From: Eledone cirrhosa
Taxonomy: Eukaryota
Assembly: GCA_964016885.1 (NCBI GenBank)
Contig: OZ024746.1
Span: forward strand, 50,964,001-51,028,000
Reading direction: 5' to 3'
DNA length: 64,000 nucleotides
Shown: positions 20,431 to 47,783 of the stretch, in pieces
Layout of the letters: every line of letters starts with the position of its first letter
Numbering within the stretch: the stretch's first letter is position 1
The notes under the pieces: model-generated
The model's input: the letters and a program-made list of their open reading frames with translations, nothing else
Told to the model about the DNA's origin: nothing
Database searches by the model: none
Made by a program: the position numbers and the translations under genes

Positions 20431-20751
20431 TTATGTTCTTCCCTCCATAACTCTTATGAACACTCGACCGTAGTCCGGGGTAATTATCTTGTATTTTTTT
20501 AGGGACTCCACGGTGGCGTATGAGAGTATCTTGAGATGTATATATATCGATCGACTTTTGTCACATCGGACCGATTAAACAATGTTTTCGTCGGTTTTTC
20601 CAGTTGCTAGTACTATCAATCGGTCGCAACTCCAAGTAGAAGACCCAGTCCTGGAATCGAACACACAACCTCAATTCTCTAACCACTCAGCCACACGCCT
20701 TCACACTCGGATGCTCTGTTGTTAAGATACTCAATTACTAATTTGTTACGG

Positions 20752-21010
20752 GTAGCGGCCAGATTAGTGGTAAGGGTGTTGGACCTACGATCATAATGTC
20801 GTGGGTTCGATTCCTGGATTGCGTGTTGTGTTCTTGAGCAAAGCACTTCATTTCACGTTGCTCCACTACTCAGCTGAAAATGACTACCAGCAATAGCTGA
20901 GGGTTTAACCCTGCGATGGACTGGCGTCCTGTCTAGTGAGGAGTCTTGTACACTCAGTTGCTTCACGCCATGAAACCGGGATAAGCACTGGCCAAATGAG
21001 CCTTCTGGTT
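20752..21010 (+). mobile_element. tRNA-derived SINE with a V/Meta-like central core
   Basis: TAGTGGTAAG A box, GGTTCGATTCC B box, CCCTGCGATGGACTGGCGTCC and GAAACCGGGATAAGC motifs. Confidence 0.7.
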
Positions 21011-21239
21011 TTAGACAGATTTTAGACTTTTAACGACCAGATTAGAAAATCTGGATGTGAATGAAGACATCTCACTCCCTCCGATACTTTAGGCGTCCAC
21101 CTTCGACAAGTGGTAGCCCGCATTTAGACCGACCTCCATGCGGTGTTACGCATTTATTACAATTTTATATTAACATTTGTTCGTTACTAATCTTTATCTA
21201 TATTTTTTATTAGGTATTATTTCACACGCACAAGGGGGT

Positions 21240-21401
21240 GTCCACTGGACTGATGCAAATGATTAAAAAATACAGATTTGAACAAAATAGACCGACAGTA
21301 GCCAGTGGGACCGTCTGTATACACATCCTATGAACGGGGCCTGTGGGGAACCTCCCACGTTAAATTTAAAGGAAAAGGTAACTTATTGATATATATCTAA
21401 A
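21240..21401 (+). mobile_element. Candidate 3' UTR remnant of an R2-type retrotransposon
   Basis: Non-rDNA unique sequence ending ...ATCTAAA joined precisely to TAGCCAAATG. Positional evidence only. No R2 ORF was recognised and the left boundary is arbitrary. Confidence 0.4.
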
Positions 21402-21510
21402 TAGCCAAATGCCTCGTCATCTAATTAATGACGCGCATGAACGGATCAACGAGATTCCCACTGTCCCTATCTTCTGTCTAGCAAAACCACAGCCAAGGGA
21501 ACGAGCTTGG
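21402..21510 (+). pseudogene. 28S rRNA fragment beginning at the R2 insertion site (lead-in plus first monomer)
   Basis: TAGCCAAATGCCTCGTCATCTAATTAATGACGCGCATGAACGGATCAACGAGATTCCCAC is near-identical to conserved 28S sequence immediately 3' of AAGG^TAGC. The expected upstream 28S (GACTCTCTTAAGG) is absent. Confidence 0.93.
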
Positions 21511-22106
21511 ACGGATCAACGAGATTGCCACTGTCCTTATCTACTGTCTAGCGAAACCACAGCCAAGGGAACGAGCTTGGGTTGATCAACGAGATTGCCA
21601 CTGTCCCTATCTTCTGTCTAACGAAACCACAGCCAAGCGAACGGGCTTGGACGGATCAACGAAATTACCTCTGTCCCGATCTACTGTCTTGCGAAACCAC
21701 AGCCAAGGGAATGAGCTTGGACGGATCAACGAGATTGCCACTGTCCATATCTACTGTCTAGAGAAACCACAGCCAAGGGAACGGGCTTGGACGGATCAAA
21801 GAGATTGCCACTGTCCCTATCTACTGTCTAGCGAAACCACAGCCAAGGAAACGGGCTTGGACGGATCAACGAGATTCCCACTGTCCATATCTACTGTCTA
21901 GCGAAACCACAGCCAGGGGAACGGGCTTGGACGGATCAACGAGATTCCCACTGTCCCTATCTACTGTCTAGCGAAACCACAACCAAGGGAACGAGCTTGC
22001 AAGGATCAACGAGATTGACACTGTCCCTATCTACTGTCTAGCGAAACCACAACCAAGGGAACGAGCTTGGACGGATTAACGAGATAGCCACTGTCCCTAT
22101 CTACTG

Positions 22107-22140
<34 letters not shown>

Positions 22141-22875
22141 GTGGATCAACGAGATTGCCACTGTCCCTATCTACTGTCTAGCGAAACCACAGCCAGGGGA
22201 ACGGGCTTGGGCGGATCAACGAGATTGCCACTGTCGCTATCTACAGTCTAGCGAAATCACAGCCAAGGGAACGGGCTTGGACGGATCAACGAGATTGCCA
22301 CTGTCCCTATCTGCTGTCTAGCTACACCACAGCCAAGGCAACCGGCTTGGACGGATCAACGAGATTGCCACTGTCCCTATCTACTGTCTAGAGAAATGAC
22401 AGCCAACGGAATGGGCTTGGACGGATCAACGAGATTGCCACTGTCCCTATCTACTGTCTAGCGAAACCACAGCAAGGGGAACAGTCTTGGACGGATCAAC
22501 GTGATTGCCACTGTCCCTATCTACAGTCTAGGGAAACCACAGCCAAGGGAAGGAACTTGGACGGATCAACGAGATTGCCACTGTCCCTATCTACTGTCTA
22601 GCGAAACCACAGCCAAGGGAACGAGCTTGGTTGATCAACGAGATTGCCACTGTCCCTATCTTCTGTCTAGCGAAACCACAGCCAAGCTAACGGGCTTGGA
22701 CGGATCAACGAGATTGCCTCTGTCCCTATCTACTGTCTTGCGAAACCACAGCCAAGGGAATGAGCTTGGACGGATCAACGAGATGGCCACTGTCTCTATC
22801 TACGGTCTAGCGAAACCACAGCCAAGGAAACGGGCTTGGACGGATCAACGAGATTCCCACTGTCCATATCTACTG

Positions 22876-22910
<35 letters not shown>

Positions 22911-24469
22911 CGGATCAACGAGTTTCCCACTGTCCCTATCTACTGTCTAGCGAAACCACAGCCAAGGGAACGAGCTTGCAAGGATCAACGAGATTGCCAC
23001 TGTCCCTATCTACTGTCTAGCGAAACCACAGCCAAGGGTACGAGGTTGGACGGATCAACGAGATTGCCACTGTCCCTATCGACTGTCTAGCGAAACCACA
23101 GCCAAGGGAACGAGCCTGGGTTGATCAACGAGTTTGCCACTGTCCCTATCTTCTGACTAGCGAAACCACAGCCAAACTAACGTGCTTGGACGGATCAACG
23201 AGACTGCCTCTGTCCATATCTACTTTCTTGCGAAATCACAGACAAGGAACCAGCTTGGACGGATCAACGAGATTGCCACTGTCCCTATCTACTGTCTAGC
23301 GAAATCACAGCCAAGGGAACAGGCTTGGACGGATCAACGAGATTGCCACTGTCCCTATCGACTGTCTAGTGAAAACACAGTCAAGGGAACGGTGTTGGGT
23401 GGATCAACGAGATTCCCACTGTCCCTATCTACTGTCTAGCAAAACTACAGCCTAGGCAACTGGCTTGGACGGATCAACGAGACTGCCACTGTCCCTATTT
23501 TCTGTCTAGTGAAACCACAGCCAAGCTAACGGGCTTGGACGGATCAACGAGATTGCCACTGTCCATATCTACTGTCTAGCGAAACCACAGCCAAGGAAAC
23601 GGGCTTGGACGGATCAACGAGATTGCCACTGTCGCTATCTACTGTCTAGCGAAACCACAGCCAAGGGAACGGGTTTGGGTGGATCAACGAGAATGCCACT
23701 GTCTCTATCTACTGTCTAGCGAAACCACAGCCAGGGGAACTGGCTTGGGCGGATCAACGAGATTGCCACTGTCCCTATCTACAGTCTCGCGAAATCACAG
23801 CTAAGGGAACAGGCTTGGACGGATCAACGAGATTGCCACTGTCCCTATCGACTGTCTAGTGAAAACACAGTGAAGGGAACGGTCTTGGGTGGATCAACGA
23901 GATTGCCACTGTCCCTATCTACTGTCTAGCAAAACCACAGCGAAGGGAACTGGCTTGGACGGATCAACGAGATTGCCACTGTCCCTATCTAGTGTCTAGC
24001 GAAACCACAGCCAAGGCAACTGGCTTGGACGGATCAACGAGATTGCCACTGTCCCTATCTACTGTCTAGCGAAACGACAGCCAACGGAACGGGCTTGGAC
24101 GGATCAACAAGATTGCCACTGTCCCTATCTACTGTCTAGCGAAACCACAGCAAAGGGAACGGTCTTGGACGGATCAACGTGATTGCCACTGTCCCTATCT
24201 ACTGTCTAGGGAAACCACAGCCAAGGGAACGGGCTTGGGTGGATCGACGAGATTGCCACTGTCCCTATCTACTGTCTAGCGAAACCACAGCAAAGGGAAT
24301 GAGCCTGGGTGGATCAACGAGATTGTCATTGTCCCTATCTACTGTCTAGCGAAACCACAGCCAAGGGAACGAGGTTAGACGGATCAAGGAGATGGCCACT
24401 GTCCCTATCTTCTGTCTAGCGAAACCACAGACAAGGGAACAAGATGGACGGATCAACGAGATTGCCACT

Positions 24470-24693
24470 GTCCCTATCTACTGTCTAGCGAAACTACAGC
24501 CAAGGGAACGGGCTTGGACGGATCAACGAGTTTTCCACTGTCCCTATCTTCTGTCTAGCGAAACCACAGCCAAGCTAACGGGCTTGGACGGATCAACGAG
24601 ATTGCCTCTGTCCCTATCTACTGTCTTGCGAAACCACAGCCAAGGGAATGAGCTTGGACGGATCAACGAGATAGCCACTGTCTCTATCTACTG

Positions 24694-24728
<35 letters not shown>

Positions 24729-25184
24729 CGGATCAACGAGTTTCCCACTGTCCCTATCTACTGTCTAGCGAAACCACAGCCAAGGGAACGAGCTTGGAAG
24801 GATCAACGAAGATTGCCACTGTCCCTATCTACTGTCTAGCGAAACCACAGCCAAGGGTACGTGGTTGGACGGATCAACGAGATTGCCACTGTCCCTATCT
24901 ACTGTCTAGCGAAACCACAGCCAAGGGAACGAGCTTGGGTTGATCAACGAGTTTGCCACTGTCCCTATCTTCTGACTAGGGAAACCACAGCCAAACTAAC
25001 GGGCTTGGACGGATCAACGAGATTGCCTCTGTCCCTATCTACTGTCTTGCGAAACCACAGCCAAGGGAATGAGCTTGGACGGATCAACGAGATGGCCACT
25101 GTGTCTATCTACGGTCTAGCGAAACCACAGCCAAGGAAACGGGCTTGGACGGATCAACGAGATTCCCACTGTCCATATCTACTG

Positions 25185-25219
<35 letters not shown>

Positions 25220-25883
25220 CGGATCAACGAGTTTCCCACTGTCCCTATCAAATGTCTAGCGAAACCACAGCCAAGGGAACGAGCTTGGAAGGATCAACGA
25301 GATTGCCACTGTCCCTATCTACTGTCTAGCGAAACCACATCGAAGGGTACGAGGTTGGACGGATCAACGAGATTGCCACTGTCCCTATCGACTGTCTAGC
25401 GAAACCACAGCCAAGGGAACGAGCCTGGGTTGATCAACGAGTTTGCCACTGTCCCTATCTTCGGACTAGCGAAACCACAGCCAAACTAACGGGCTTAGAC
25501 GGATCAACGAGACTGCCACTATCCATATCTACTTTCTTGCGAAACCACAGACAAGGAACCAGCTTGGACGGATCAACGAGATTGCCACTGTCCCTATCTA
25601 CTGTCTAGCGAAATCACAGCCAAGGGAACAGGCTTGGACGGATCAACGAGATTGTCACTGTCCCTATCGACTGTCTAGTGAAAACACAGTCAAGGGAACG
25701 GTGTTGGGTGGATCAACGAGATTCCCACTGTCCCTATCTACTGTCTAGCAAAACTACAGCCTAGGCAACTGGCTTGGACGGATCAACGAGACTGCCACTG
25801 TCCCTATCTACTGTCTAGCGAAACGACAGCCAACGGAACGGGCTTGGACGGATCAACGAGATTGCCAATGTCCCTATTTTCTG

Positions 25884-25917
<34 letters not shown>

Positions 25918-28900
25918 GTGGATCAACGAGAATGCCACTGTCCCTATCTACTGTCTAGCGAAACCACAGCCAGGGGAACTGGCTTGGGCGGATCAACGAG
26001 GTTGCCACTGTCCCTATCTACAGTCTCGCGAAATCACAGCTAAGGGAACAGGCTTGGACGGATCAACGAGATTGCTACTGTCCCTATCGACTGTCTAGTG
26101 AAAACACAGTGAAGGGAACGGTCTTGGGTGGATCAACGAGATTGCCACTGTCCCTATCTACTGTCTAGCGAAACTACAGCCAAGGGAACGGGCTTGGACG
26201 GATCAACGAGTTTTCCACTGTCCCTATCTACTGTCTAGCGAAGCCACAGCCAAGGCAACTGGCTTGGACGGATCAACGAGATTGCCACTGTCCCTATCTA
26301 CTCTCTAGCGAAACCACAGCCAAGGGAACGAGCTTGGATTGATCAAGGAGATGGCCACTGTCCCTATCTCTGTCTAGCGAAACCACAGACAAGGGAACGA
26401 GCTTGGACGGATCAAGGTGTTTGCCACTGTCCCTATCTACTGTCTAGCGAAACCACAGCTAAGGGAATGAGCTTGGGTGGATCAACAAGATTGCCATTGT
26501 CCCTATCTACTGTCTAGCGAAACCACAGCCAAGGTAACGAGCTTGGACGGATCAAGGAGATGGCCACTGTCCCTATCTTCTGTCTAGCTAAACCACAGAC
26601 AAGGAAACGAGCTTGGACGGATCAACGAGATTGCCACTGTCCCTATCTACTGTCTAGCGGAACCACAGCTAAGGGAATGAGCTTGGGTGAATCAACGAGA
26701 TTGCCATTGTCCCTATCTACTGTCTAGCGAAACCACAGCCAAGGGAACGAGCTTGGACGCATCAACGAGATTGCCTCCGTCCCTATCTACTGTCTAGCGA
26801 TCTACAGCCAAAGAACGAGCTTGGACGGATCAACGAGATTCCCACTGTCACTATCTACTGTCTAGCGAAATCATAGCCAAGGGAACGGGCTTGGACGGAT
26901 CAAAGAGTTTGACACTGTCCCTAACTACTGTCTAGCGAAACCACAACCAAGGGAACGGACTTAGGTGGATCCACGAGATTACCACTGTCCCTATCTACTG
27001 TCTAGCGAAACTAGAGCCAAGGAACGAGCTTGGACGGATCAACGAGATTGCCACTGTCCCTATCTACTGTCTAGCGAAACCACAGCCAGGGCAACTGGCT
27101 TGGACGGATCAACGAGATTGCCACTGTCCCTATCTACTGTCTAGCGAAACCACAGCAAAAGGAACGGGCTTGGACGGATCAACGAGATTGCCACTGTTTC
27201 TATCTACTGTCTAGCGAAATCACAGCCAAGGGAACAGGCTTGGACGGATCAACGAGATTGCCACTGTCCCTATCGACTGTCTAGTGAAAACACAGTCAAG
27301 GGAACGGTGTTGGGTGGATCAACGAGATTCCCACTGTCCCTATCTACTGTCTAGCAAAACTACAGCCTAGGCAACTGGCTTGGACGGATCAACGAGTCTG
27401 CCACTGTCCCTATCTACTGTCTAGCGAAACGACAGCCAACGGAACGGGCTTGGACGGATCAACGAGATTGCCAATGTCCCTCTCTTCTGTCTAGCGAAAC
27501 CACAGCCAAGCTAACGGGCTGGACGGATCAACGAGATTTCCACTGTCCATATCTACTGTCTAGCGAAACCACAGCCAAGGAAACGGGCTTGGACGGATCA
27601 ACGAGATTGCCACTGTCGCTATCTACTGTCTAGCGAAACCACAGCCAAGGGAACGGACATGGGTGGATCAATGAGAATGCCACTGTCCCTATCTACTGTC
27701 TAGCGAAACCACAGCCAAGGGAACAGGCTTGGACGGATCAACGAGATTGCCACTGTCCCTATCTACTGTCTATCGAAACCACAGCCAAGGCAACTGGCTT
27801 GGACGGATCAACGAGATTGCCACTGTCCCTATCTACTGTCTAGCGAAACGACAACCAACGGAACGGGCTTGGACGGATCAACGTGATTGCCACTGTCCCT
27901 ATCTACTGTCTAGGGAAACCACAGCCAAGGGAACGGGCTTGGCTGGATCGACGAGATTGCCACTGTCCCTATCTACTGTCTAGCGAAACCACAACAAAGG
28001 GAATGAGCCTGGGTGGATCAACGAGATTGTCATTGTCCCTATCTACTGTGTAGCGAAACCACAGCCAAGGGAACGAGGTTAGAAGGATCAAGGAGATGGC
28101 CAATCTCCCTATCTTCTGTCTAGCGAAACCACAGACAAGGGAACGAGATGGACGGATCAACGAGATTGCCACTGTCCCTATCTACTGTCTAGCGAAACTA
28201 CAGCCAAGGGAACGGGCTTGGACGGATCAACGAGTTTTCCACTGTCCCTATCTACTGTCTAGCGAAGCCACAGCCAAGGCAACTGGCTTGGTCGGATCAA
28301 CGAGATTGCCACTGTCCCTATCTACTGTCTAGCGAAACCACAGCCAAGGGAACGAGCTTGGACGGATCAAGGAGATGGCCACTGTCCCTATTTACTGTCT
28401 AGCTAAACCACAGACAAGGAAACGAGCTTGGACGGATCAACGAGATTGCCACTGTCCCTATCTACTGTCTAGCGAAACCACAGCTAAGGGAATGAGCTTG
28501 GGTGAATCAACGAGATTGCCATTGTCCCTATCTACTGTCTAGCGAAACCACAGCCAAGGGAACGAGCTTGGACGCATCAACGAGATTGCCTCCGTCCCTA
28601 TCTACTGTCTAGCGATCTACAGCCAAAGAACGAGCTTGGACGGATCAACGAGATTCCCACAGTCACTATCTACTGTCTAGCGAAATCATAGCCAAGGGAA
28701 CGGGCTTGGACGGATCAAAGAGTTTGACACTGTCCCTATTTACTGTCTAGCGAAACCACAAACAAGGGAACGGACTTAAGTGGATCCACGAGATTACCAC
28801 TGTCCCTATCTACTGTCTAGCGAAACTAGAGCCAAGGAACGAGCTTGGACGGATCAACGAGATTGCCACTGTCCCTATCTACTGTCTAGCGAAACCACAG

Positions 28901-30632
28901 CCAGGGCAACTGGCTTGGACGGATCAACGAGATTGCCACTGACCCTATCTACTGTCTAGCGAAACCACAGCAAAAGGAACGGGCTTGGACGGATCAACGA
29001 GATTGCCACTGTTTCTATCTACTGTCTAGCGAAATCACAGCCAAGGGAACAGGCTTGGACGGATCAACGAGTTTGCCACTGTCCCTATCGACTGTCTAGT
29101 GAAAACACAGTCAAGGGAACGGTGTTGGGTGGATCAACGAGATTCCCACTGTCCCTATCTACTGTCTAGCAAAACTACAGCCTAGGCAACTGGCTTGGAC
29201 GGATCAACGAGTCTGCCACTGTCCCTATCTACTGTCTAGCGAAACCACAGCCAAGGGAACAGGCTTGGACGGATCAACGAGATTGCCACTGTCCCTATCT
29301 ACTGTCTATCGAAACCACAGCCAAGGCAACTGGCTTGGACGGATCAACGAGATTGCCACTGTCCCTATCTACTGTCTAGCGAAACGACAACCAACGGAAC
29401 GGGCTTGGACGGATCAACGTGATTGCCACTGTCCCTATCTACTGTCTAGGGAGACCACAGCCAAGGGAACGGGCTTGGCTGGATCGACGAGATTGCCACT
29501 GTCCCTATCTACTGTCTCGCGAAACCACAACAAAGGGAATGAGCCTGGGTGGATCAACGAGATTGTCATTGTCCCTATCTACTGTCTAGCGAAACCACAG
29601 CCAAGGGAACGAGGTTAGACGGATCAAGGAGATGGCCAATCTCCCTATCTTCTGTCTAGCGAAACCACAGACAAGGGAACGAGATGGACGGATCAACGAG
29701 ATTGCCACTGTCCCTATCTACTGTCTAGCGAAACTACAGCCAAGGGGGAACAGGCTTGGACGGATCAACGAGTTTTCCACTGTCCCTATCTACTGTCTAG
29801 CGAAGCCACAGCCAAGGCAACTGGCTTGGACGGATCAAGGAGATTGCCACTGTCCCTATCTACTGTCTAGCGAAACCACAGCCAAGGGAACGAGCTTGGA
29901 CGGATCAAGGAGATGGCCACTGTCCCTATCTCTGTCTAGAGAAACCACAGACAAGGGAACGAGCTTGGACGGATCAACGAGATTGCCATTGTCCCTATCT
30001 ACTGTCTAGCGAAACCACAGCCAAGGTAACGAGCTTGGACGGATCAAGGAGATGGCCACTGTCCCTATCTTCTGTCTAGCTAAACCACAGACAAGGAAAC
30101 GAGCTTGGACGGATCAACGAGATTTCCACTGTCCCTATCTACTGTCTAGCGAAACCACAGCTAAGGGAATGAGCTTGGGTGAATCAACGAGATTGCCATT
30201 GTCCCTATCTACTGTCTAGCGAAACCACAGCCAAGGGAACGAGCTTGGACGCATCAACGAGATTGCCTCTGTCCCTATCTACAGTCTAGCGAAACCACAG
30301 CCAAGGTAACGGACTTAGGTGGATCAACGAGATTCCCACTGTCCCTATCTACTATCTAGCGATCTACAGCCAAAGAACGAGCTTGGACGGATCAAAGAGT
30401 TTGACACTGTCCCTATCTACTGTCTAGCGAAACTACAGCCAAGGGAACGGGCTTGGACGGATCAACGAGTTTTCCACTGTCCCTATCTTCTGTCTAGCGA
30501 AACCACAGCCAAGCTAACGGGCTTGGACGGATCAACGAGATTGCCTCTGTCCCTATCTACTGTCTTGCGAAACCACAGCCAAGGGAATGAGCTTGGACGG
30601 ATCAACGAGATGGCCACTGTCTCTATCTACTG

Positions 30633-30667
<35 letters not shown>

Positions 30668-31123
30668 CGGATCAACGAGTTTCCCACTGTCCCTATCTAC
30701 TGTCTAGCGAAACCACAGCCAAGGGAACGAGCTTGGAAGGATCAACGAAGATTGCCACTGTCCCTATCTACTGTCTAGCGAAACCACAGCCAAGGGTACG
30801 TGGTTGGACGGATCAACGAGATTGCCACTGTCCCTATCTACTGTCTAGCGAAACCACAGCCAAGGGAACGAGCTTGGGTTGATCAACGAGTTTGCCACTG
30901 TCCCTATCTTCTGACTAGGGAAACCACAGCCAAACTAACGGGCTTGGACGGATCAACGAGATTGCCTCTGTCCCTATCTACTGTCTTGCGAAACCACAGC
31001 CAAGGGAATGAGCTTGGACGGATCAACGAGATGGCCACTGTGTCTATCTACGGTCTAGCGAAACCACAGCCAAGGAAACGGGCTTGGACGGATCAACGAG
31101 ATTCCCACTGTCCATATCTACTG

Positions 31124-31158
<35 letters not shown>

Positions 31159-31822
31159 CGGATCAACGAGTTTCCCACTGTCCCTATCAAATGTCTAGCG
31201 AAACCACAGCCAAGGGAACGAGCTTGGAAGGATCAACGAGATTGCCACTGTCCCTATCTACTGTCTAGCGAAACCACATCCAAGGGTACGAGGTTGGACG
31301 GATCAACGAGATTGCCACTGTCCCTATCGACTGTCTAGCGAAACCACAGCCAAGGGAACGAGCCTGGGTTGATCAACGAGTTTGCCACTGTCCCTATCTT
31401 CGGACTAGCGAAACCACAGCCAAACTAACGGGCTTGGACGGATCAACGAGACTGCCACTATCCATATCTACTTTCTTGCGAAACCACAGACAAGGAACCA
31501 GCTTGGACGGATCAACGAGATTGCCACTGTCCCTATCTACTGTCTAGCGAAATCACAGCCAAGGGAACAGGCTTGGACGGATCAACGAGATTGTCACTGT
31601 CCCTATCGACTGTCTAGTGAAAACACAGTCAAGGGAACGGTGTTGGGTGGATCAACGAGATTCCCACTGTCCCTATCTACTGTCTAGCAAAACTACAGCC
31701 TAGGCAACTGGCTTGGACGGATCAACGAGACTGCCACTGTCCCTATCTACTGTCTAGGGAAACGACAGCCAACGGAACGGGCTTGGACGGATCAACGAGA
31801 TTGCCAATGTCCCTATTTTCTG

Positions 31823-31856
<34 letters not shown>

Positions 31857-34800
31857 GTGGATCAACGAGAATGCCACTGTCCCTATCTACTGTCTAGCGA
31901 AACCACAGCCAGGGGAACTGGCTTGGGCGGATCAACGAGGTTGCCACTGTCCCTATCTACAGTCTCGCGAAATCACAGCTAAGGGAACAGGCTTGGACGG
32001 ATCAACGAGATTGCTACTGTCCCTATCGACTGTCTAGTGAAAACACAGTGAAGGGAACGGTCTTGGGTGGATCAACGAGATTGCCACTGTCCCTATCTAC
32101 TGTCTAGCGAAACTACAGCCAAGGGAACGGGCTTGGACGGATCAACGAGTTTTCCACTGTCCCTATCTACTGTCTAGCGAAGCCACAGCCAAGGCAACTG
32201 GCTTGGACGGATCAACGAGATTGCCACTGTCCCTATCTACTCTCTAGCGAAACCACAGCCAAGGGAACGAGCTTGGATTGATCAAGGAGATGGCCACTGT
32301 CCCTATCTCTGTCTAGCGAAACCACAGACAAGGGAACGAGCTTGGACGGATCAAGGTGTTTGCCACTGTCCCTATCTACTGTCTAGCGAAACCACAGCTA
32401 AGGGAATGAGCTTGGGTGGATCAACAAGATTGCCATTGTCCCTATCTACTGTCTAGCGAAACCACAGCCAAGGTAACGAGCTTGGACGGATCAAGGAGAT
32501 GGCCACTGTCCCTATCTTCTGTCTAGCTAAACCACAGACAAGGAAACGAGCTTGGACGGATCAACGAGATTGCCACTGTCCCTATCTACTGTCTAGCGAA
32601 ACCACAGCTAAGGGAATGAGCTTGGGTGAATCAACGAGATTGCCATTGTCCCTATCTACTGTCTAGCGAAACCACAGCCAAGGGAACGAGCTTGGACGCA
32701 TCAACGAGATTGCCTCCGTCCCTATCTACTGTCTAGCGATCTACAGCCAAAGAACGAGCTTGGACGGATCAACGAGATTCCCACTGTCACTATCTACTGT
32801 CTAGCGAAATCATAGCCAAGGGAACGGGCTTGGACGGATCAAAGAGTTTGACACTGTCCCTAACTACTGTCTAGCGAAACCACAACCAAGGGAACGGACT
32901 TAGGTGGATCCACGAGATTACCACTGTCCCTATCTACTGTCTAGCGAAACTAGAGCCAAGGAACGAGCTTGGACGGATCAACGAGATTGCCACTGTCCCT
33001 ATCTACTGTCTAGCGAAACCACAGCCAGGGCAACTGGCTTGGACGGATCAACGAGATTGCCACTGTCCCTATCTACTGTCTAGCGAAACCACAGCAAAAG
33101 GAACGGGCTTGGACGGATCAACGAGATTGCCACTGTTTCTATCTACTGTCTAGCGAAATCACAGCCAAGGGAACAGGCTTGGACGGATCAACGAGATTGC
33201 CACTGTCCCTATCGACTGTCTAGTGAAAACACAGTCAAGGGAACGGTGTTGGGTGGATCAACGAGATTCCCACTGTCCCTATCTACTGTCTAGCAAAACT
33301 ACAGCCTAGGCAACTGGCTTGGACGGATCAACGAGTCTGCCACTGTCCCTATCTACTGTCTAGCGAAACGACAGCCAACGGAACGGGCTTGGACGGATCA
33401 ACGAGATTGCCAATGTCCCTCTCTTCTGTCTAGCGAAACCACAGCCAAGCTAACGGGCTGGACGGATCAACGAGATTGCCACTGTCCATATCTACTGTCT
33501 AGCGAAACCACAGCCAAGGAAACGGGCTTGGACGGATCAACGAGATTGCCACTGTCGCTATCTACTGTCTAGCGAAACCACAGCCAAGGGAACGGACATG
33601 GGTGGATCAATGAGAATGCCACTGTCCCTATCTACTGTCTAGCGAAACCACAGCCAAGGGAACAGGCTTGGACGGATCAACGAGATTGCCACTGTCCCTA
33701 TCTACTGTCTATCGAAACCACAGCCAAGGCAACTGGCTTGGACGGATCAACGAGATTGCCACTGTCCCTATCTACTGTCTAGCGAAACGACAACCAACGG
33801 AACGGGCTTGGACGGATCAACGTGATTGCCACTGTCCCTATCTACTGTCTAGGGAAACCACAGCCAAGGGAACGGGCTTGGCTGGATCGACGAGATTGCC
33901 ACTGTCCCTATCTACTGTCTAGCGAAACCACAACAAAGGGAATGAGCCTGGGTGGATCAACGAGATTGTCATTGTCCCTATCTACTGTCTAGCGAAACCA
34001 CAGCCAAGGGAACGAGGTTAGAAGGATCAAGGAGATGGCCAATCTCCCTATCTTCTGTCTAGCGAAACCACAGACAAGGGAACGAGATGGACGGATCAAC
34101 GAGATTGCCACTGTCCCTATCTACTGTCTAGCGAAACTACAGCCAAGGCAACTGGCTTGGTCGGATCAACGAGATTGCCACTGTCCCTATCTACTGTCTA
34201 GCGAAACCACAGCCAAGGGAACGAGCTTGGACGGATCAAGGAGATGGCCACTGTCCCTATCTACTGTCTAGCTAAACCACAGACAAGGAAACGAGCTTGG
34301 ACGGATCAACGAGATTGCCACTGTCCCTATCTACTGTCTAGCGAAACCACAGCTAAGGGAATGAGCTTGGGTGAATCAACGAGATTGCCATTGTCCCTAT
34401 CTACTGTCTAGCGAAACCACAGCCAAGGGAACGAGCTTGGACGCATCAACGAGATTGCCTCCGTCCCTATCTACTGTCTAGCGATCTACAGCCAAAGAAC
34501 GAGCTTGGACGGATCAACGAGATTCCCACAGTCACTATCTACTGTCTAGCGAAATCATAGCCAAGGGAACGGGCTTGGACGGATCAAAGAGTTTGACACT
34601 GTCCCTATTTACTGTCTAGCGAAACCACAAACAAGGGAACGGACTTAAGTGGATCCACGAGATTACCACTGTCCCTATCTACTGTCTAGCGAAACTAGAG
34701 CCAAGGAACGAGCTTGGACGGATCAACGAGATTGCCACTGTCCCTATCTACTGTCTAGCGAAACCACAGCCAGGGCAACTGGCTTGGACGGATCAACGAG

Positions 34801-36350
34801 ATTGCCACTGACCCTATCTACTGTCTAGCGAAACCACAGCAAAAGGAACGGGCTTGGACGGATCAACGAGATTGCCACTGTTTCTATCTACTGTCTAGCG
34901 AAATCACAGCCAAGGGAATGGTGTTGGGTGGATCAACGAGATTCCCACTGTCCCTATCTACTGTCTAGCAAAACTACAGCCTAGGCAACTGGCTTGGACG
35001 GATCAACGAGTTTGCCACTGTCCCTATCGACTGTCTAGTGAAAACACAGTCAAGGGAACGGTGTTGGGTGGATCAACGAGATTCCCACTGTCCCTATCTA
35101 CTGTCTAGCAAAACTACAGCCTAGGCAACTGGCTTGGACGGATCAACGAGTCTGCCACTGTCCCTATCTACTGTCTAGCGAAACCACAGCCAAGGGAACA
35201 GGCTTGGACGGATCAACGAGATTGCCACTGTCCCTATCTACTGTCTATCGAAACCACAGCCAAGGCAACTGGCTTGGACGGATCAACGAGATTGCCACTG
35301 TCCCTATCTACTGTCTAGCGAAACGACAACCAACGGAACGGGCTTGGACGGATCAACGTGATTGCCACTGTCCCTATCTACTGTCTAGGGAGACCACAGC
35401 CAAGGGAACGGGCTTGGCTGGATCGACGAGATTGCCACTGTCCCTATCTACTGTCTCGCGAAACCACAACAAAGGGAATGAGCCTGGGTGGATCAACGAG
35501 ATTGTCATTGTCCCTATCTACTGTCTAGCGAAACCACAGCCAAGGGAACGAGGTTAGACGGATCAAGGAGATGGCCAATCTCCCTATCTTCTGTCTAGCG
35601 AAACCACAGACAAGGGAACGAGATGGACGGATCAACGAGATTGCCACTGTCCCTATCTACTGTCTAGCGAAACTACAGCCAAGGGAACAGGCTTGGACGG
35701 ATCAACGAGTTTTCCACTGTCCCTATCTACTGTCTAGCGAAGCCACAGCCAAGGCAACTGGCTTGGACGGATCAAGGAGATTGCCACTGTCCCTATCTAC
35801 TGTCTAGCGAAACCACAGCCAAGGGAACGAGCTTGGACGGATCAAGGAGATGGCCACTGTCCCTATCTCTGTCTAGAGAAACCACAGACAAGGGAACGAG
35901 CTTGGACGGATCAACGAGATTGCCATTGTCCCTATCTACTGTCTAGCGAAACCACAGCCAAGGTAACGAGCTTGGACGGATCAAGGAGATGGCCACTGTC
36001 CCTATCTTCTGTCTAGCTAAACCACAGACAAGGAAACGAGCTTGGACGGATCAACGAGATTTCCACTGTCCCTATCTACTGTCTAGCGAAACCACAGCTA
36101 AGGGAATGAGCTTGGGTGAATCAACGAGATTGCCATTGTCCCTATCTACTGTCTAGCGAAACCACAGCCAAGGGAACGAGCTTGGACGCATCAACGAGAT
36201 TGCCTCTGTCCCTATCTACAGTCTAGCGAAACCACAGCCAAGGTAACGGACTTAGGTGGATCAACGAGATTCCCACTGTCCCTATCTACTATCTAGCGAT
36301 CTACAGCCAAAGAACGAGCTTGGACGGATCAAAGAGTTTGACACTGTCCC
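24470..36350 (+). repeat. Two tandem copies of a ~5,939-bp (~85-monomer) higher-order unit
   Basis: Identical or near-identical spurious ORFs recur at a 5,939 offset: 24861/30800, 27729/33668, 28096/34035, 29265/35204, 29632/35571. Confidence 0.9.
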
Positions 36351-36918
36351 TATCTACTGTCTAGCGAAACCACAACCAAGGGAACGGACTTAGGTGGATC
36401 CACGAGATTACCACTGTCCCTATCTACTGTCTAGCGAAACTAGAGCCTAGGAACGAGCTTGGACGGATCAACGAGATTGCCACTGTCCCTATCTACTGTC
36501 TAGCGAAACCACAGCCAGGGCAACTGGCTTGGACGGATCAACGAGATTGCCACTGTCCCTATCTACTGTCTAGCGAAACCACAGCAAAGGGAACGGGCTT
36601 GGACGGATCAACGAGATTGCCACTGTCCCTATCTACTGTCTAGCGAAACCACAGCTAAGGGAACGGTCTTGGACGGATCAACGTGATTACCACTGTCCGT
36701 ATCTACTGTCCTTGGAAACCGCAGACAAGAGAACGAACTTGGACGGATCAACGTGATTGCCACTGTCCCTATCTACTATCTAGGGAAACCACAGCCAAGG
36801 GAACGAACTTGGACGGATCAACGAGTTGCCACTGTCCCTATCTACTGTCTAGCGAAACTCCAGCCAAGGAACCAGCTTGGACGGATCAATGAGATTGCCA
36901 CTGTCCCTACCTATTGAG

Positions 36919-36950
<32 letters not shown>

Positions 36951-37799
36951 GTGGATCGACGAGATTGTCACTGTCCCTATCTACTGTCTAGCAAAACCAC
37001 AGCCAAGGGAACGGGCTTGGGTGTATCAACGAGATTGCCGCTGTCCCTATCTACTGTCTAGCGAAATCACAGCCAAGGGAACGAGGTTGGGTGGATCAAC
37101 GAGATTGCCACTGTCCCTATCTTCTGTCTAGTGAAAGCACAGCCAAGCTAACGGGCTTGGACGGATCAACGAGGTTGCCACTGTCCCTATCTACTGTCTA
37201 GCGAAACCACAGCCAAGGAAACGGGCTTGGACGGATCAACGAGATTGCCACTGTTCCTATCTACTGTCTAGCGAAACTACAGCCAAGGAACCAGTTTGGA
37301 CGGATCAACGAGATTGCCACTGTCCCTATCTACTGTCTAGCGAAACCACAGCTAAGGGAATGTGCTTGGGTGGATCAACAAGATTGCCATTGTCCCTATC
37401 TACTGTCTAGCGAAACCACAGCCAAGGTAACGAGCTTGGACGGATCAAGGAGATGGCCACTGTCCCTATCTTCTGTCTAGCTAAACCACAGACAAGGAAA
37501 CGAGCTTGGACGGATCAACGAGATTGCCATTGTCCCTATCTACTGTCTAGCGAAACCACAGCTAAGGGAATGAGCTTGGGTGAATCAACGAGATTGCCAT
37601 TGTCCCTATCTACTGTCTAGCGAAACCACAGCCAAGGGAACGAGCTTGGACGCATCAACGAGATTGCCTCTGTCCCTATCTACTGTCTAGCGAAACTACA
37701 GCCAAGGGAACGGGCTTGGACGGATCAACGAGTTTGTCACTGTCCCTATCTACAGTCTAGCGAAACCACAGCCAAGGGAACGGACTTAGGTGGATCAAC

Positions 37800-40700
37800 G
37801 AGATTCCCACTGTCCCTATCTACTATCTAGCGATCTACAGCCAAAGAACGAGCTTGGACGGATCGACGAGATTGCCACTGTTCCTATCGACTGTCTAGCG
37901 AAACCACAGCCAAGGGAATAGGCTTGGGCGGATCAACGAGATTCCCACTGTCCCTATCTACTGTCTAGCGAAACCACAGCAAAGGGAACGGGCTTGGACG
38001 GATCAACGAGATTGCCACTGTCCCTATCTACTGTCTAGCGAAACTACAGCCAAGGAACCAGCTTGGACGAATCAACGAGATTGCCACTGTCCCTATCTAC
38101 TGTCTAGCGAAACTACAGCCAAGGAACGAGCTTGGGCGGATCAACGAGATTGCCACTGTCCCTATCTACTGTCTAGCGAAACCACAGCTAAGGGAATGAG
38201 CTTGGGTGGATCAACAAGATTGCCATTGTCCCTATCTACTGTCTAGCGAAACCACAGCCAAGGTAACGAGCTTGGACGGATCAAGGAGATGGCCACTGTC
38301 CCTATCTTCTGTCTAGCTAAACCACAGACAAGGAAACGAGCTTGGACGGATCAACGAGATTGCCATTGTCCCTATATACTGTCTAGCGAAACCACAGCTA
38401 AGGGAATGAGCTTGGGTGAATCAACGAGATTACCTCTGTCCCTATCTACTGTCTAGCGAAACTACAGCCAAGGGAACGGGCTTGGACGGATCAAGGAGTT
38501 TGTCACTGTCCCTATCTACAGTCTAGCGAAACCACAGCCAAGGGAACGGACTTAGGTGGATCAACGAGATTCCCACTGTCCCTATCTACTGTCTAGCGAA
38601 ACCACAGCAAAGGGAACGGGCTTGGACGGATCAACGAGATTGCCACTGTCCCTATCTACTGTCTAGCGAAACCACAGCTAAGGGAACGGTCTTGGACGGA
38701 TCAACGTGATTACCACTGTCCCTATCTACTGTCCTTGGAAACCGCAGACAAGAGAACGAACTTGGACGGATCAACGTGATTGCCACTGTCCCTATCTACT
38801 ATCTAGGGAAACCACAGCCAAGGGAACGAACTTGGACGGATCAACGAGTTGCCACTGTCCCTATCTACTGTCTAGCGAAACTCCAGCCAAGGAACCAGCT
38901 TGGACGGATCAATGAGATTGCCACTGTCCCTATCTTCTGTCTAGTGAAAGCACAGCCAAGCTAACGGGCTTGGACGGATCAACGAGGTTGCCACTGTCCC
39001 TATCTACTGTCTAGCGAAACCACAGCCAAGGAAACGGGCTTGGACGGATCAACGAGATTGCCACTATCCCTATCTACTGTCTAGCGAAACTACAGTCAAG
39101 GAACCAGCTTGGACGGATCAACGAGATTGCCACTGTCCCTATCTATTGTCTAGCGAAACCACAACCAAGGGAACGGTCTTGGACGGATCAACGAGATTGC
39201 CACTGTCCCTATCTACTGTCTAGCGAAACTAAAGCCTAGGAACCAGCTTGGACGAGTCAACGAGATTGCCACTGTCCCTATCTACTGTCTAGCGAAACTA
39301 CAGCCAAGAAACGAGCTTGGACGGATGAACGAGATTGCCACTGTCCCTATCTACTGTCTAGCGAAACCACAGCCAAGGGAACGGGTTTGGGTGGATCGAC
39401 GAGATTGCCACTCTCACTATCTACTGTCTAGCGAAACCACAGCGAAGGGAACGGGCTTGGGTGGATCAACGAGATTGCCACTGTCCCTATCTACTGTCTA
39501 GCGAAACCACAGCCAAGGGTACGAGCTTGGACGGATCAAGGAGATGGCCACTGTCCCTATCTCTGTCTAGCGAAACCACAGACAAGGGAACGAGCTTAGA
39601 CTGATCAACGAGATTGCCACTGTCCCTATCTACTGTCTAGCGAAACCACAGCTAAGGGAATGAGCTTGGGTGAATCAACGAGATTGCCATTGTCCCTATC
39701 TACTGTCTAGCGAAACCACAGCCAAGGGAACGAGCTTGAACGGATCAAGGAGATGGCCACTGTCGCTATCTCTGTCTAGCGAAACCACAGACAAGGGAAC
39801 GAGCTTGGACGGATCAACGAGATTGCCACTGTCCCTATTTACTGTCTAGCGAAACCACAGCCAAGGGAACGGACTTAGGTGGATCAACGAGATTCCCACT
39901 GTCCCTATCTACTATCTAGCGATCTACAGCCAAAGAACGAGCTTGGACGGATCAACGAGATTGCCACTGTTCCCATCGACTGTCTAGCGAAACCACAGCA
40001 AAGGGAATAGGCTTGGGCGGATCAACGAGATTCCCACTGTCCCTATCTACTGTCTAGCGAAATCATAGCCAAGGGAACGAGCATGGACGGATCAAAGAGT
40101 TTGCCACTGTCCCTATCTACTGTCTAGCGAAACCACAGCCAAGGGAACGGACTTAGGTGGATCCACGAGATTACCACTGTCCCTATCTACTGTCTAGCGA
40201 AATTAGAGCCAAGGAACGAGCATGGACGGATCAACGAGATTGCCACTGTCCCTATCTACTGTCTAGCGAAACCACAGCCAGGGCAACTGGCTTGGACGGA
40301 TCAACGAGATTGCCACTGTCCCTATCTACTGTCTAGCGAAACCACAGCAAAGGGAACGGGCTTGGACGGATCAACGAGATTGCCACTGTCCCTATCTACT
40401 GTCTAGCGAAACCACAGCCAAGGTAACGGGTTTGGGTGGATCGACGAGATTGCCACTCTCACTATCTACTGTCTAGCGAAACCACAGCGAAGGGAACGGG
40501 CTTGGGTGGATCAACGAGATTGCCATTGTCCCTATCTACTGTATAGCGAAACCACAGCCAAGGGAACGAGCTTGGACGGATCAAGGAGATGGCCACTGTC
40601 CCTATCTCTGTCTAGCGAAACCACAGACAAGGGACCGAGCTTGGACGGATAAACGAGATTGCCACTGTCCCTATCTACTGTCTAGCGAAATCACAGCCAA

Positions 40701-40947
40701 CGGAACGGGCTTGGACGGATCAACGAGATTGCCACTGTCTAGCGAAACCACAGCAAAAGGAACGGTCTTGGACGGATCGTCGAGATTGCCAATGTCCCTA
40801 TCTACTGTCTAGCGAAACCACAGCTAAGGGAACGAGCTTGGACGGATCAAGGAGATGGCCACTGTCCCTATCTACTGTCTAGCGAAACCACAGCCAAGGG
40901 AACGAGTTTGGGTAGATCAACGAGATTGCCACTGTCCCTATCTACTG

Positions 40948-40982
<35 letters not shown>

Positions 40983-41494
40983 CGGATCAACGAGATTGCC
41001 ACTGTCCCTATCTACTGTCTAGCGAAACCACGGCCATGCGAACGGGCTTGGGTGGATCGACGAGATTGACACTGTCCCTATCTACGGTCTAGCGAAACTA
41101 CAGCCAAGGGAACGGGCTTGGGTGGATCAACGAGATTGCCACTGTCCCTATCTACTGTCTAGCGAAATCACAGCCAACGGAACGGGCTTGGACGGATCAA
41201 CGAGATTGCCACTGTCTAGCGAAACCACAGCAAAAGGAACGGTCTTGGACGGATCGTCGAGATTGCCAATGTCCCTATCTACTGTCTAGCGAAACCACAG
41301 CTAAGGGAACGAGCTTGGACGGATCAAGGAGATGGCCACTGTCCCTATCTACTGTCTAGCGAAACCACAGGCAAGGGAACGAGCTTGGACGGATCAACGA
41401 GATTGCCACTGTCCCTATTTACTTTCTAGCGAAACCACAGCCAAGGGAACGAGTTTGGGTAGATCAACGAGATTGCCACTGTCCCTATCTACTG

Positions 41495-41529
<35 letters not shown>

Positions 41530-42321
41530 CGGATCAACGAGATTGCCACTGTCCCTATCTACTGTCTAGCGAAACCACGGCCATGCGAACGGGCTTGGGT
41601 GGATCGACGAGATTGACACTGTCCCTATCTACGGTCTAGCGAAACTACAGCCAAGGGAACGGGCTTGGGTGGATCGACGAGATTGCCACTGTCCCTATCT
41701 AATGTCTAGAGAAACCACAGACAAGGGACCGAGCTTGGACGGATCAACGAGATTGCCACTGTCCCTATCTACTTTCTAGCGAAACCACAGCTAAGGGAAC
41801 GAGCTTGGACGGATCAAGGAGATAGGCCACTGTCCCTATCTTCTGTCTAGCGAAACTACAGCCAAGGAACGAGCTTGGACGGATCAACGAGATTGCCACG
41901 GTCCCTATTTACTGTCTAGCGAAACCACAGCGAAGGGAACGGGTTTGGGTGGATCGTCGAGATTGCCACTCTCCCTATCTACTGTCTAGCGAAACCACAG
42001 CGAAGGGAAAGGGCTTCGGTGGATCGACGAGATTGCCACTGTCTAGCGAAACCACGGCAAAGGGAACGGTCTTCGACGGATCGTCGAGATTGCCACTGTC
42101 CCTATCTACTGTCTAGCGAAACCACAACTAAGGGAACGAGCTTGGACGGATCAAGGAGATGGTCACTGTCCTTATCTTCTGTCTAGCGAAACCACAGACA
42201 AGGGAACGAGCTTGGACGGATCAACGAGATTGCCACTGTCCCTATCTACTTTCTAGCGAAACCACAGCCAAGGGAACGAGCTTGGGTGGATCAACGAGAT
42301 TGCCACTGTCCCTATCTACTG

Positions 42322-42356
<35 letters not shown>

Positions 42357-43434
42357 CGGATCAACGAGATTGCCACTGTCCCTATCAACTTTCTAGCGAA
42401 ACTACAGCCAAGTAACCAGCTTGGACGGATCAACGAGATTGCCATGTCCCTATCTACTGTTAGCGAAAGCACGGCTAAGCGAACGGGCTTGGGTGGGTCG
42501 ACGAGATTGTCACTGTCCTTATCTACGGTCTAGCGAAACTACAGCTAAGGGAACGAGTTTGGACGGATCAAGGAGATGGCCACTGTCCCTATCTTCTGTC
42601 TAGCGAAACTACAGCCAAGGAACGAGCTTGGACGGATCAACGAGATTGCCACTCTCTCTATCTACTGTCTAGCGAAACCACAGCGAAGGGAACGGGCTTC
42701 GGTGGATCGACGAGATTGCCACTCTCCCTATCTACGGTCTAGCGAAACTACAACCAAGGAACCAGCTTGGACGGATCAACGAGATTGCCACTGTCCCTAT
42801 CTACTGTCTAGCGAAACCACAGCCAAGTGAACTGGCTTGGGTGGATCGACGAGATTGCCACTCTCCCTATCTACGGTCTAGCGAAACCACAGCAGAGGGA
42901 ACGGGCTTGGGTGGATCGACGAGATTGCCACTCTCCCTATCTACGGTCTAGCGAAACTACAACCAAGGAACCAGCTTGGACGGATCAACGAGATTGCCAC
43001 TGTTCCTATCTACTGTCTAGCGAAACCACAGCCAAGTGAACTGGCTTGGGTGGATCGACGAGATTGCCACTCTCCCTATCTACGGTCTAGCGAAACCACA
43101 GCAGAGGGAACGGGCTTGGGTGGATCAACGAGATTGCCACTGTCCCTATCTACTGTCTATCGAAACCACAGCCAAGGAAACGGGCTTGGACGGATCAACG
43201 AGATTGCCACTGTCCCTATCTACTCTCTAGTGAAACCACAGCCAAGGAAACGGGCTTGGACGGATCAACGAGATTGCCACTGTCCCTAGCTACTGTCTAG
43301 CGAAACCACAGCCAAGGAAACGGGCTTGGACGGATCAACGAGATTGCCACTGTCCCTATCTACTGTCTAGCGAAACTACAGCCAAGGAATCAGCTTGGAC
43401 GGATCAACGAGATTGCCACTGTCCTTATCTATTG

Positions 43435-43469
<35 letters not shown>

Positions 43470-43643
43470 CGGATCAACGAGTTTGCCACTGTCCCTATCT
43501 ACTGTCTAGCGAAACTACAGCCAAGGAACCAGCTTGGACGGATCAACGAGATTGCCACTCTCCTTATCTACGGTCTAGCGAAACCACGGCCAAGGGAACG
43601 GGATTGGGTGGATTAACGAGATTGCCACTGCCCCTATCTACTT

Positions 43644-43677
<34 letters not shown>

Positions 43678-44272
43678 GTGGATCGACGAGATTGCCACTC
43701 TCCCTATCTACGGTCTAGCGAAACTACAGCCAAGGAACCATCTTGGACGCATCAACGAGATTGCCACTGTCCCTATCTACTGTCTAGCGAAATCACAGCC
43801 CAGTGAACTGGCTTGGGTGGATCGAAGAGATTGCCACTCTCCCTATCTACGGTCTAGCGAAATCACAGCCAAGGGAAGGGGCTTGGGTGGATCGACGAGA
43901 TCGCCACTCTCCTTATCTACGGGCTAGCGAAACCACAGCCAAGGGAACGAGCTTGGGTTGATCAACGAGATTGCCACTGTCCCTATCTTCCGACTAGCGA
44001 AACCACAGCCAAGCTAACGGGGTTGGACGGATCAACGAGATTGCCTCTGTCCCTCTCTACTCTCTTGCAAATCCACAGCCAAGGGAATGAGCTTGTACGG
44101 ATCAACGAGATTCCCACTGTCCATATCTACTGTCTAGCGAAACCACAGACAAGGGAACGGGCTAGGACGGATCAACGAGATTGCCACTGTCCCTATCTAC
44201 GGTCTAGCAAAGCCACAGCCATGGGGACGAGCTTGGACGGATCAACGAGATTGCCACTGTCCTTATCTATTG

Positions 44273-44307
<35 letters not shown>

Positions 44308-45316
44308 CGGATCAACGAGATTGCCACTGTCACAATCTACTGTCTAGCGAAACTAGAACCAAGGAACCAGCTTGGACGGATCAAGGAGATTGCCAGTCTT
44401 TATCTTCCGTCTAGCGATCCACAGCCAAGCTAACGGGCTTGGACGGATCAACGAGATTGCCACTGTCCCTATCTACTCTCTAACGAAACCACAGCCAAGG
44501 AAACGGGCTTGGACGGATCAACGAGATTGCCACTGTCGCTATCTACTGTCTAGCGAAACCACAGCCAAGGAAACGGGCTTGGACGGATCAACGAGATTGC
44601 CACTGTCCCTATCTACTGTCTAGCGAAGTTACAGCCATGGAACCAGCTTGGACGGATCAACGAGATTGCCACTGTCCTTATCTACTGTCTAGCGAAACCA
44701 CAGCCAAGGGAACGGTCTTGGGTGGATTAACGAGATTGCCACTGTCCCTATCTACTGTCTAGCAAAACCACAGAGAAGGGAACTGGCTGGACGGATCAAC
44801 GAGATTGCCACTTTCCCTATCTACTGTCTAGCGAAACCACAGCCAAGGCAACTGGCTTGGACGGATCAACGAGATTGCCACTGTCCCTATGTACTTTCTA
44901 AAGTAACGACAGCCAACGGAACGGGCTTGGACGGATCAACGTGATTGCCTCTGTCCCTATCTACTGTCTAGCGAAACCACAGCTAAGGGAATGAGCTTGG
45001 ACGGATCAATGAGATTGCCATTGTCCTTATGTACTTTCTAGAGAAATCACAGCGAAGGGAACGAGCATGTGTGGATCAACGAGATTGCCACTCTCCCTAT
45101 CTACTGTCTAGCGAAACCACAGCCAAGGCGACTGGCTTGGACGGATGAACGAGATTGCCACTGTCCCTATGTACTGTCTAACGTAACGACAGCCAACGGA
45201 ACGGGCTTGGGTGGTTCAACAAGATTACCACTGTCCCTATCTTCTGTCTAGCGAAACCACAGACAAGAGAACGAGCTTGGACGGATCAACGAGATTGCCA
45301 TTGTCCCTATCTACTG

Positions 45317-45351
<35 letters not shown>

Positions 45352-45747
45352 CGGATCAACGAGATTGCCACTGTCCCTATCTACTGTCTATCGAAACCAC
45401 AGCCAAGGGAATAGGCTTGGGCGGATCAACGAAATTACCACTGTCCCTATCTACTGTCTAGCGAAATCACAGCCAAGGGAACGGGCTTGGACGGATCAAC
45501 GAGTTTGCCACTGTCCCTATCTACTGTCCCTATCTTCTGTCTAGCGAAACCACAGCCAAGCTAACGCGCTTGGACGGATCAACGAGATTGCCACTGTCCC
45601 TATCTACTGTCTAGCGAAACCACAGCCAAGGAAAGGGGCTTGGACGGATCAACGAGATTGCCACCTTCCCTATCTACTGTCTAGCGAAACTCCAGCCAAG
45701 GAACCAGCTTGGACGGATCAACGAGATTGTCACTGTCCCATCTATTG

Positions 45748-45782
<35 letters not shown>

Positions 45783-45889
45783 CGGATCAACGAGATTGCC
45801 ACTGTCCCTATCTACTCTCTAGCGAAACTCCAGCCAAGGAACCAGCTTGGACGGATCAACGAGATTGCCACTGTCCCTATCTATTGTCA

Positions 45890-45920
<31 letters not shown>

Positions 45921-47004: not shown

Positions 47005-47039
<35 letters not shown>

Positions 47040-47504
47040 CGGATCAACGAGATTGCCACTGTCCCTATCTACTGTCTAGCGAAATCACAGCCAAGGGAAC
47101 GGGCTTGGACGGATCAACGAGTTTGCCACTGTCCTTATCTACTGTCCCTATCTTCTGTCTAGCGAAACCACAGCCAAGCTAACGCGCTTGGACGGATCAA
47201 CGAGATTGCCACTGTCCATATCTACTGTCTAGCGAAACCACAGCCAAGTAGACGGGCTTGGACGGATCAACGAGATTGCCACCTCCCCTATCTACTGTCT
47301 AGCGAAACTCCAGCCAAGGAACCAGCTTGGACGGATCAACGAGATTGTCACTGTCCCATCTATTGTCTAGCGAAATCACAGCCAAGGGAACGGGCTTGGA
47401 CGGATCAACGAGATTGCCACTGTCCCTATCTACTCTCTAGCGAAACTCCAGCCAAGGAACCAGCTTGGACGGATCAACAAGAGCGCAACTGTCCCTATCT
47501 ACTG

Positions 47505-47537
<33 letters not shown>

Positions 47538-47783
47538 TGTGGATCAACGAGTTTGCCACTATCCCTATCTATTGTCTAGCGAAACCACAGCCAACGAAAC
47601 GGGCTTGGACGGATCAACGAGATTGCCACTGTCCCTATCTACTGTCTAGCGAAACCACAGCCAAGGAAACGGGCTTGGACGGATCAACGAGATTGCCACT
47701 GTCCCTATCTACTGTCTAGCGAAACTACAGTCAAGGAATCAGCTTGGACGGATCAACGAGATTGCCACTGTCCTTATCTATTG

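Follow-up and report, generated by a model that had tools for sequence, protein, structure and literature searches.

Satellites that arose from ribosomal DNA (rDNA) and were amplified independently of it are described in plants such as Vigna, where they derive from subrepeats of the 35S intergenic spacer (IGS) (PMC8724763). The site-specific retrotransposon R2 is also found away from its usual setting: in birds, R2 remnants are flanked by fragmented 28S or by non-rRNA DNA (PMC5035012), and Drosophila simulans has extra-rDNA R2 copies and a tandem array of an R1/R2 fusion (PMC2718515). R2-like elements that are not site-specific have been described (PMC7650587), as has a GGAAAAG hinge motif in the 3′ end of the A-clade elements R2Tg and R2Pm (PMC11601368). 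SINE28 is a mammalian SINE derived from 28S (PMC10946416), and in Inachis io both R2 and a spacer satellite are associated with rDNA (PMC10257491, PMC10946416). Mollusca are listed in PMC13188248, whose main text does not contain the words octopus or cephalopod; cephalopod R2 may be covered by its supplementary species tables. A literature search whose scope excluded most subscription journals returned no report of a satellite that arose at an R2 junction from the 28S core, nor of R2/28S in octopus.

The 64,000-nucleotide stretch of the Eledone cirrhosa genome analysed here (the window; G000:C6:50,964,001-51,028,000) contains a 70-bp satellite next to the remnant of an R2 element (Table 1). 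Unlike in the plant IGS satellites, the unit comes from the conserved coding core of 28S rather than from a spacer, it forms one array, and single-copy flanks on both sides as well as the R2 junction of the seed survive. Like the avian remnants, the locus combines a defunct R2 end and a piece of 28S at a place outside the rDNA array, but amplification of the neighbouring 28S is not reported in the part of the avian study that deals with these remnants, and the tandem unit of D. simulans is the element fusion itself. As in A-clade R2, to whose member R2Tg the ORF of the host element is closest, the 3′ end found in the window shows GGAAAAG after a hairpin, in the corresponding position, whereas the window holds a broken 3′ untranslated region (UTR) alone, with neither ORF nor 5′ end. 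In SINE28, 28S coding sequence likewise became repetitive, but it was dispersed by retroposition, while here it forms a single tandem array. Our preferred reading, to which we assign a probability of about 0.74, is that, within ~185 bp of 28S joined to an orphan R2 3′ UTR, a 70-bp segment was duplicated at a 7-bp repeat and grew at that site to 272 kb, R2 being a bystander.

Table 1. Positions of the R2 remnant, the 28S seed and the satellite in the window.
Feature	Position	Strand	Basis
Most upstream surviving R2 3′ UTR piece	20446..20502	+	Profile columns 404-468; E ~1 alone (weak)
SINE-like high-copy repeat fragments interrupting the UTR remnant	20519..20716		Very high depth in 4/4 runs; zero over 20420-20518
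Second R2 3′ UTR piece, ending in the left copy of the 9-bp target duplication (20759-20767)	20736..20767	+	Alignment to the C18 copy
5′-truncated SINE inside the R2 UTR	20768..21036	+	High-copy in reads; 9-bp target duplication
Main R2 3′ UTR piece, reaching the 3′ end of the element	21037..21401	+	L067 alignment, nhmmer, tree
Hairpin (21343-21358) and GGAAAAG hinge-like motif (21371-21377) of the R2 3′ end	21343..21377	+	Alignment
Single-copy 28S rRNA, +1 to +39 downstream of the R2 site	21402..21440	+	38/39 identical to host 28S; Rfam LSU match
70-bp satellite, 28S +40 to +109	21441..64000, on to G000:C6:51,257,536	+	609.6 copies in the window

The Junction at the R2 Insertion Site

Non-rDNA sequence stops at position 21401 and 28S begins at 21402. 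Measured against the uninterrupted 28S unit of the host (L044/L019), this start corresponds to position +1 of the R2 site. The first-pass annotation had described this junction and the lack of 28S upstream of it, and had proposed that an R2 3′ end with its downstream 28S lies outside the rDNA locus. Both points are confirmed by the sequence and by blastn, in which 71 kb of upstream DNA (21.4 kb within the window, 50 kb of contig) showed no rDNA; no 5′ junction with upstream 28S and no R2 5′ sequence were found in that interval either. Its further statement that the seed of the array starts at the R2 site is correct for the seed fragment but not for the amplified unit, which starts 39 bases later, at 21441. 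Rfam gave no match at its gathering threshold in the whole window. A 26-base pattern spanning the junction has 20 other exact matches in the genome, 17 directly after an R2 or R2-derived 3′ end, one after plain 28S and two after other sequence. The position of the junction is not a chance one, since such a large majority of these matches directly follow R2. An (A)n tail is absent at the R2/28S junction of the window, as it is from the R2 3′ ends of the host.

The junction or the array could be an artefact of assembly, or the similarity to R2 a product of chance. This would agree with the near absence of read depth over 21047-21400 and, more broadly, with the near-zero depth over the UTR in 4 of the 7 runs listed (20420-21400), where one reduced-representation run reached ~2-fold depth over a part. 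It is nevertheless a very improbable explanation: the contig is gap-free across 302 kb, 1,785 of 3,181 full-length monomers are distinct, all 50 words sampled from 20950-21440 are present in three runs of one sample (possibly the source sample, and so not independent), and the similarity to R2 is well above that of shuffled and background controls.

The Upstream DNA Is a Broken R2 3′ UTR

The DNA upstream of 21402 is an R2 3′ UTR, homologous to the R2 3′ UTRs of the host and ending at the R2 site, as the first-pass annotation had supposed. When 21040-21401 was searched against the 3.0-Gb genome only the locus itself matched, and relatives came from an R2 protein search and sensitive alignment. 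By this path and with profiles, the matches that the annotation had called for, to the 3′ ends of host elements inserted in 28S and encoding reverse transcriptase (RT) plus a restriction-like endonuclease, were obtained. Positions 21001-21401 are colinear with the UTR of copy L067 with a score of 89 (1,000 shuffles: mean 31, maximum 63; 206 background windows: maximum 42). A profile built from 19 host 3′ ends, the window being left out, matched only 21043-21210 and 21338-21386 in the 42.8 kb searched, and one richer in old copies matches 21050-21383 (nhmmer E 1.8e-14). The best-matching relatives belong to an old short-tailed R2 subfamily (scores 124, 103 and 97), with which the window UTR groups in a tree, on a long branch and with support of 98/97. 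No remnant of an R2 ORF was found by tblastn in 1-21401, and the RT matches 20+ kb away are only 22-31% identical.

Later insertions of repeats have broken up the UTR remnant. When these repeats are skipped, the joint profile score rises to 58.2 bits, compared to 42.1 for the core alone and to 45.9 at most in 100 random controls, and the match reaches ~20446. The second piece aligns best, among six relatives tried, to the C18 copy (local score 38; shuffle mean 19.6, none of 300 shuffles as high). The SINE is flanked at 20759 and 21037 by the 9-mer CCAGATTAG, which has no other occurrence on the + strand of 1-21401. The 3′ end of the element is essentially complete, because the tails of the old subfamily are equally short; a deletion of ~25 bases from the R2 end was considered and dropped, the tail being 23 nt in the window and 25-26 in that subfamily. 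Hairpin and hinge motif are conserved in the 16 aligned rows, 94.6% of whose cells pair, while no pair shows compensatory change in the R2 3′ module of these rows. Folding of the UTR end is not better than that of shuffled sequences (z 0.83), and the same holds for one to two satellite monomers.

The window UTR is 53-58% identical to the old-subfamily copies and to the C3 copy, while the adjoining 28S flanks are ~99% identical to present 28S. This mismatch counts against simple decay; we infer that the element of the window may represent a sub-lineage with no other assembled copy.

R2 Elements of the Host

The host has genuine R2 elements. Copy L031 carries an intact ORF of 1,214 amino acids with an RVT_1 domain, whose best PDB match is R2Tg (E 4.6e-142). 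A C-terminal R2 query has at least 87 matches in the genome (124 of 1,190 candidates scored). There are two main R2 families, A and B, accompanied by ~1.2-kb non-coding derivatives of B and by stacked insertions. Family B has three N-terminal zinc-finger motifs, and copies of it are found within 28S, with a junction on each side (L107). Many rDNA units that are nearly complete and carry R2 or SIDE inserts lie scattered over at least eight contigs. The ~1.2-kb derivatives, which have no ORF, occupy the R2 site in many assembled rDNA units (L035-L037, L041-L043, L045-L047), and plain 28S is seen at just one of 21 exact junction matches. R2-A, R2-B and non-coding derivatives are stacked head to tail over 30 kb at one 28S site (L103-L106, G000:C18:15.04-15.08 Mb), with further stacks at L102/L038 (C7:29.29 Mb) and L032. 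In L034:6430-7000 (G000:C3:72.18 Mb) the last ~570 bp of an R2-B UTR give way to unrelated GC-rich DNA running up to the 28S R2 site.

Some family-B copies are found outside rDNA and have no 28S flank: L113 (G000:C5:54.46 Mb), L112 (C18:32.77 Mb) and L109 (C1:380.63 Mb). L113 is a full-length R2-B with precise ends, ~95% identical to another copy. Ectopic copies of this type suggest that the target specificity of R2 is relaxed in this host.

The 70-bp Array

The array extends over 272,096 bp in fetched stretches that join without gaps, which corresponds to ~3,890 units by length (3,775 anchors were found). No R2 sequence is present in the unit, whose consensus departs from host 28S at one fixed and one polymorphic position out of 70. 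The 3,181 full-length monomers diverge from the consensus by 8.1% on average and from 28S by 9.4%, and none is identical to 28S. The array is a long head-to-tail run of an rDNA-homologous unit that lies outside functional rDNA and diverges from it, that is, an rDNA-derived satellite. C/G positions of 21441-64000 vary ~2.5 times more than A/T positions (0.087 vs 0.035) with no excess at CpG (0.085), a pattern found across the whole array.

At its far end, the array is followed by a short deletion, 34 bases of 28S (+137 to +170, 100% identical) and then host DNA. The 28S-like base at unit position 17 is present in 10% of the units of the first 20 kb and in 5-6% of those in the last two bins, compared to 0-1% at 121-241 kb. 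The array grew in place, as deduced from the single-copy 28S that flanks both ends in order and from the retention of the ancestral base mainly near the edges. The far-end 28S and the assembly of the array likewise bear out the earlier proposal that the 70 bp were amplified after the fragment had moved. The unit-junction pattern has 1,774 forward and 10 reverse matches genome-wide, all within this array, and no second array with this junction was found in the assembly by the exact pattern, which strongly diverged arrays would escape. The reverse matches fall in a 2-kb inversion (28 units) at G000:C6 ~51,215,200-51,217,200. Together with long near-identical blocks at spacings of 1-13 kb within the array, the inversion is a sign of ongoing unequal exchange. 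Further satellites, with 86-bp and 42-bp units, were present in 5 of 5 stretches sampled at 51.9-53.0 Mb of C6 (L087-L091), 0.6-1.7 Mb further on and close to the middle of C6, which suggests that this region of C6 is rich in satellites.

The repeat could also have expanded first in a unit that R2 had inactivated, inside a genuine rDNA array, or in a full dispersed unit, with the remainder of that unit deleted afterwards. The near-complete, insert-bearing rDNA units dispersed over the contigs offer a setting for such a course, and a second rDNA-derived satellite of this genome, on C28, does lie in hollowed-out rDNA units. We consider it distinctly improbable, as 71 kb of upstream DNA and 58 kb of downstream DNA past the 34-bp tail contain neither rDNA nor spacer nor R2 ORF sequence, and this despite flanking 28S pieces that are nearly unmutated.

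Unit Boundaries and Microhomology

The unit is bounded by the 7-bp direct repeat ACGGATC, which starts at +40 with a spacing of 70 and is the sole direct repeat of at least 7 bases wholly within the seed. Microhomology accounts for the boundaries of the unit but not for the expansion of this particular copy, because such repeats are common in 28S (118 of at least 7 bases in 5.1 kb). Among the units, 21 measure 57 bp and 7 measure 83 bp, lengths that, as read from the sequence, fit a 13-bp stretch lost or gained between the copies of an internal 6-bp repeat. The orphan on C15 carries the identical 13-bp deletion.

The Proposed Role of R2 in the Birth of the Satellite

At six other loci an R2 3′ end has just 50-265 bp of 28S after it and no 28S in forward orientation upstream. 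None of these orphans is amplified or has a duplication. Dispersed 28S pieces also start at arbitrary positions (41 matches, 23 of them near-full-length and 18 mostly partial). The satellite on C28 has a 317-bp mosaic unit of 18S pieces and of 28S -1620 to -1583, far from the R2 site, and no R2 was found in the 40 kb examined around it; the genome hence makes rDNA satellites without R2. This satellite is part of a macro-repeat of at least seven hollowed-out rDNA units (L197-L200, G000:C28:124.76-124.80 Mb).

The first-pass annotation had linked a site-specific retroelement to the birth of the satellite. Such a causal role is not supported, because the unit has no R2 sequence, the six orphans are unamplified and the second rDNA satellite is without R2. 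R2 is likely a bystander that marks the origin of the fragment rather than driving its amplification. That annotation had also proposed to check whether other arrays begin with the same junction, and had counted arrays beginning at arbitrary 28S positions against its view; by the exact unit-junction pattern there is no second array of this unit in the assembly, and the C28 satellite, remote from the R2 site, goes part of the way towards the contrary case.

In a causal scenario, a read-through R2-28S RNA would have been reverse transcribed at the present site, where a slip or jump of the RT at the 7-base repeat would have made the first 70-base duplication and seeded the array. The six short-tailed orphans and the full-length L113 with its precise ends outside rDNA are in line with it, as is L116:3963-7012 (G000:C11:6.27 Mb), an old 5′-truncated R2 whose 5′ part is inverted and takes in 28S -47 to -9, with 212 bp of 28S after the element. 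The layout of L116, at which no target duplication was found, resembles that produced by twin priming on an rRNA-R2 co-transcript template. Up to 14 nt of downstream 28S can accompany R1 at ectopic insertions (PMC2718515), a precedent for an RNA route. Avian A-clade R2, on the other hand, starts at the R2/28S boundary, apparently without copying rRNA tails of 3-20 nt (PMC11371274), and the clean, precise ectopic R2 copies of the host carry no 28S. Target duplications are absent from the window locus, whose 5′ end is eroded by later insertions, and from nine comparison loci. With no duplication in any of the six comparable orphans and an R2-free satellite on C28, we hold a causal RT slip to be unlikely. 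The wider proposal that retroposed R2-rRNA read-through transcripts scattered R2-tagged 28S pieces over at least seven loci, and that in one of them the RT step itself made the first 70-base duplication and so founded the 272-kb satellite, is in our view equally unlikely.

Route of the Fragment out of the rDNA

Arrival of the R2-28S piece at the DNA level, as an eroded dispersed rDNA copy or a captured fragment, stands at somewhat better than even odds. It is favoured by the many near-complete rDNA units dispersed in the genome, by the behaviour of avian A-clade R2, by the clean ectopic copies of the host, which lack 28S, and by the absence of target duplications here and at nine comparison loci, although those ectopic copies have none either. 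A retrocopy of an R2-rRNA co-transcript, at a little under even odds, is favoured by the existence of a class of R2 3′ ends with short 28S tails, by L116 and by the R1 precedent; a poly(A) tail, a hallmark of retrocopies, is absent at the window locus.

The preferred reading, in which R2 is a bystander, would comprise the following steps. R2 would have inserted into its 28S target by ordinary target-primed reverse transcription, and the R2-28S piece would then have come to its present site by DNA capture or erosion, or as a retrocopy. The first duplication of 70 bp would have been guided by microhomology, likely through slippage or unequal exchange, and large unequal exchanges may have followed in the satellite-rich region. 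We predict that the array is probably non-functional.

Significance and Other Features of the Window

The locus preserves, clearly and well, the birth of a satellite from 28S coding sequence in an R2-tagged orphan. The seed of a satellite is rarely retained, but here the parent 28S is present along with the single-copy flanks on both sides, the microhomology that defines the unit and sister orphans that did not amplify. The order and tempo of the expansion are thus directly testable. The ~3,890 near-28S copies would likely be mistaken for rDNA in FISH, R2 junction PCR and estimates of rDNA copy number. Should the retrocopy route prove true, 28S-derived repeats would have R2 co-transcripts as a source.

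Elsewhere in the window, minus-strand open frames at 5985-6320, 7091-7438 and 11587-12030 contain what we take, by eye, to be transposase-like and GIY-YIG/Penelope-type-like fragments.
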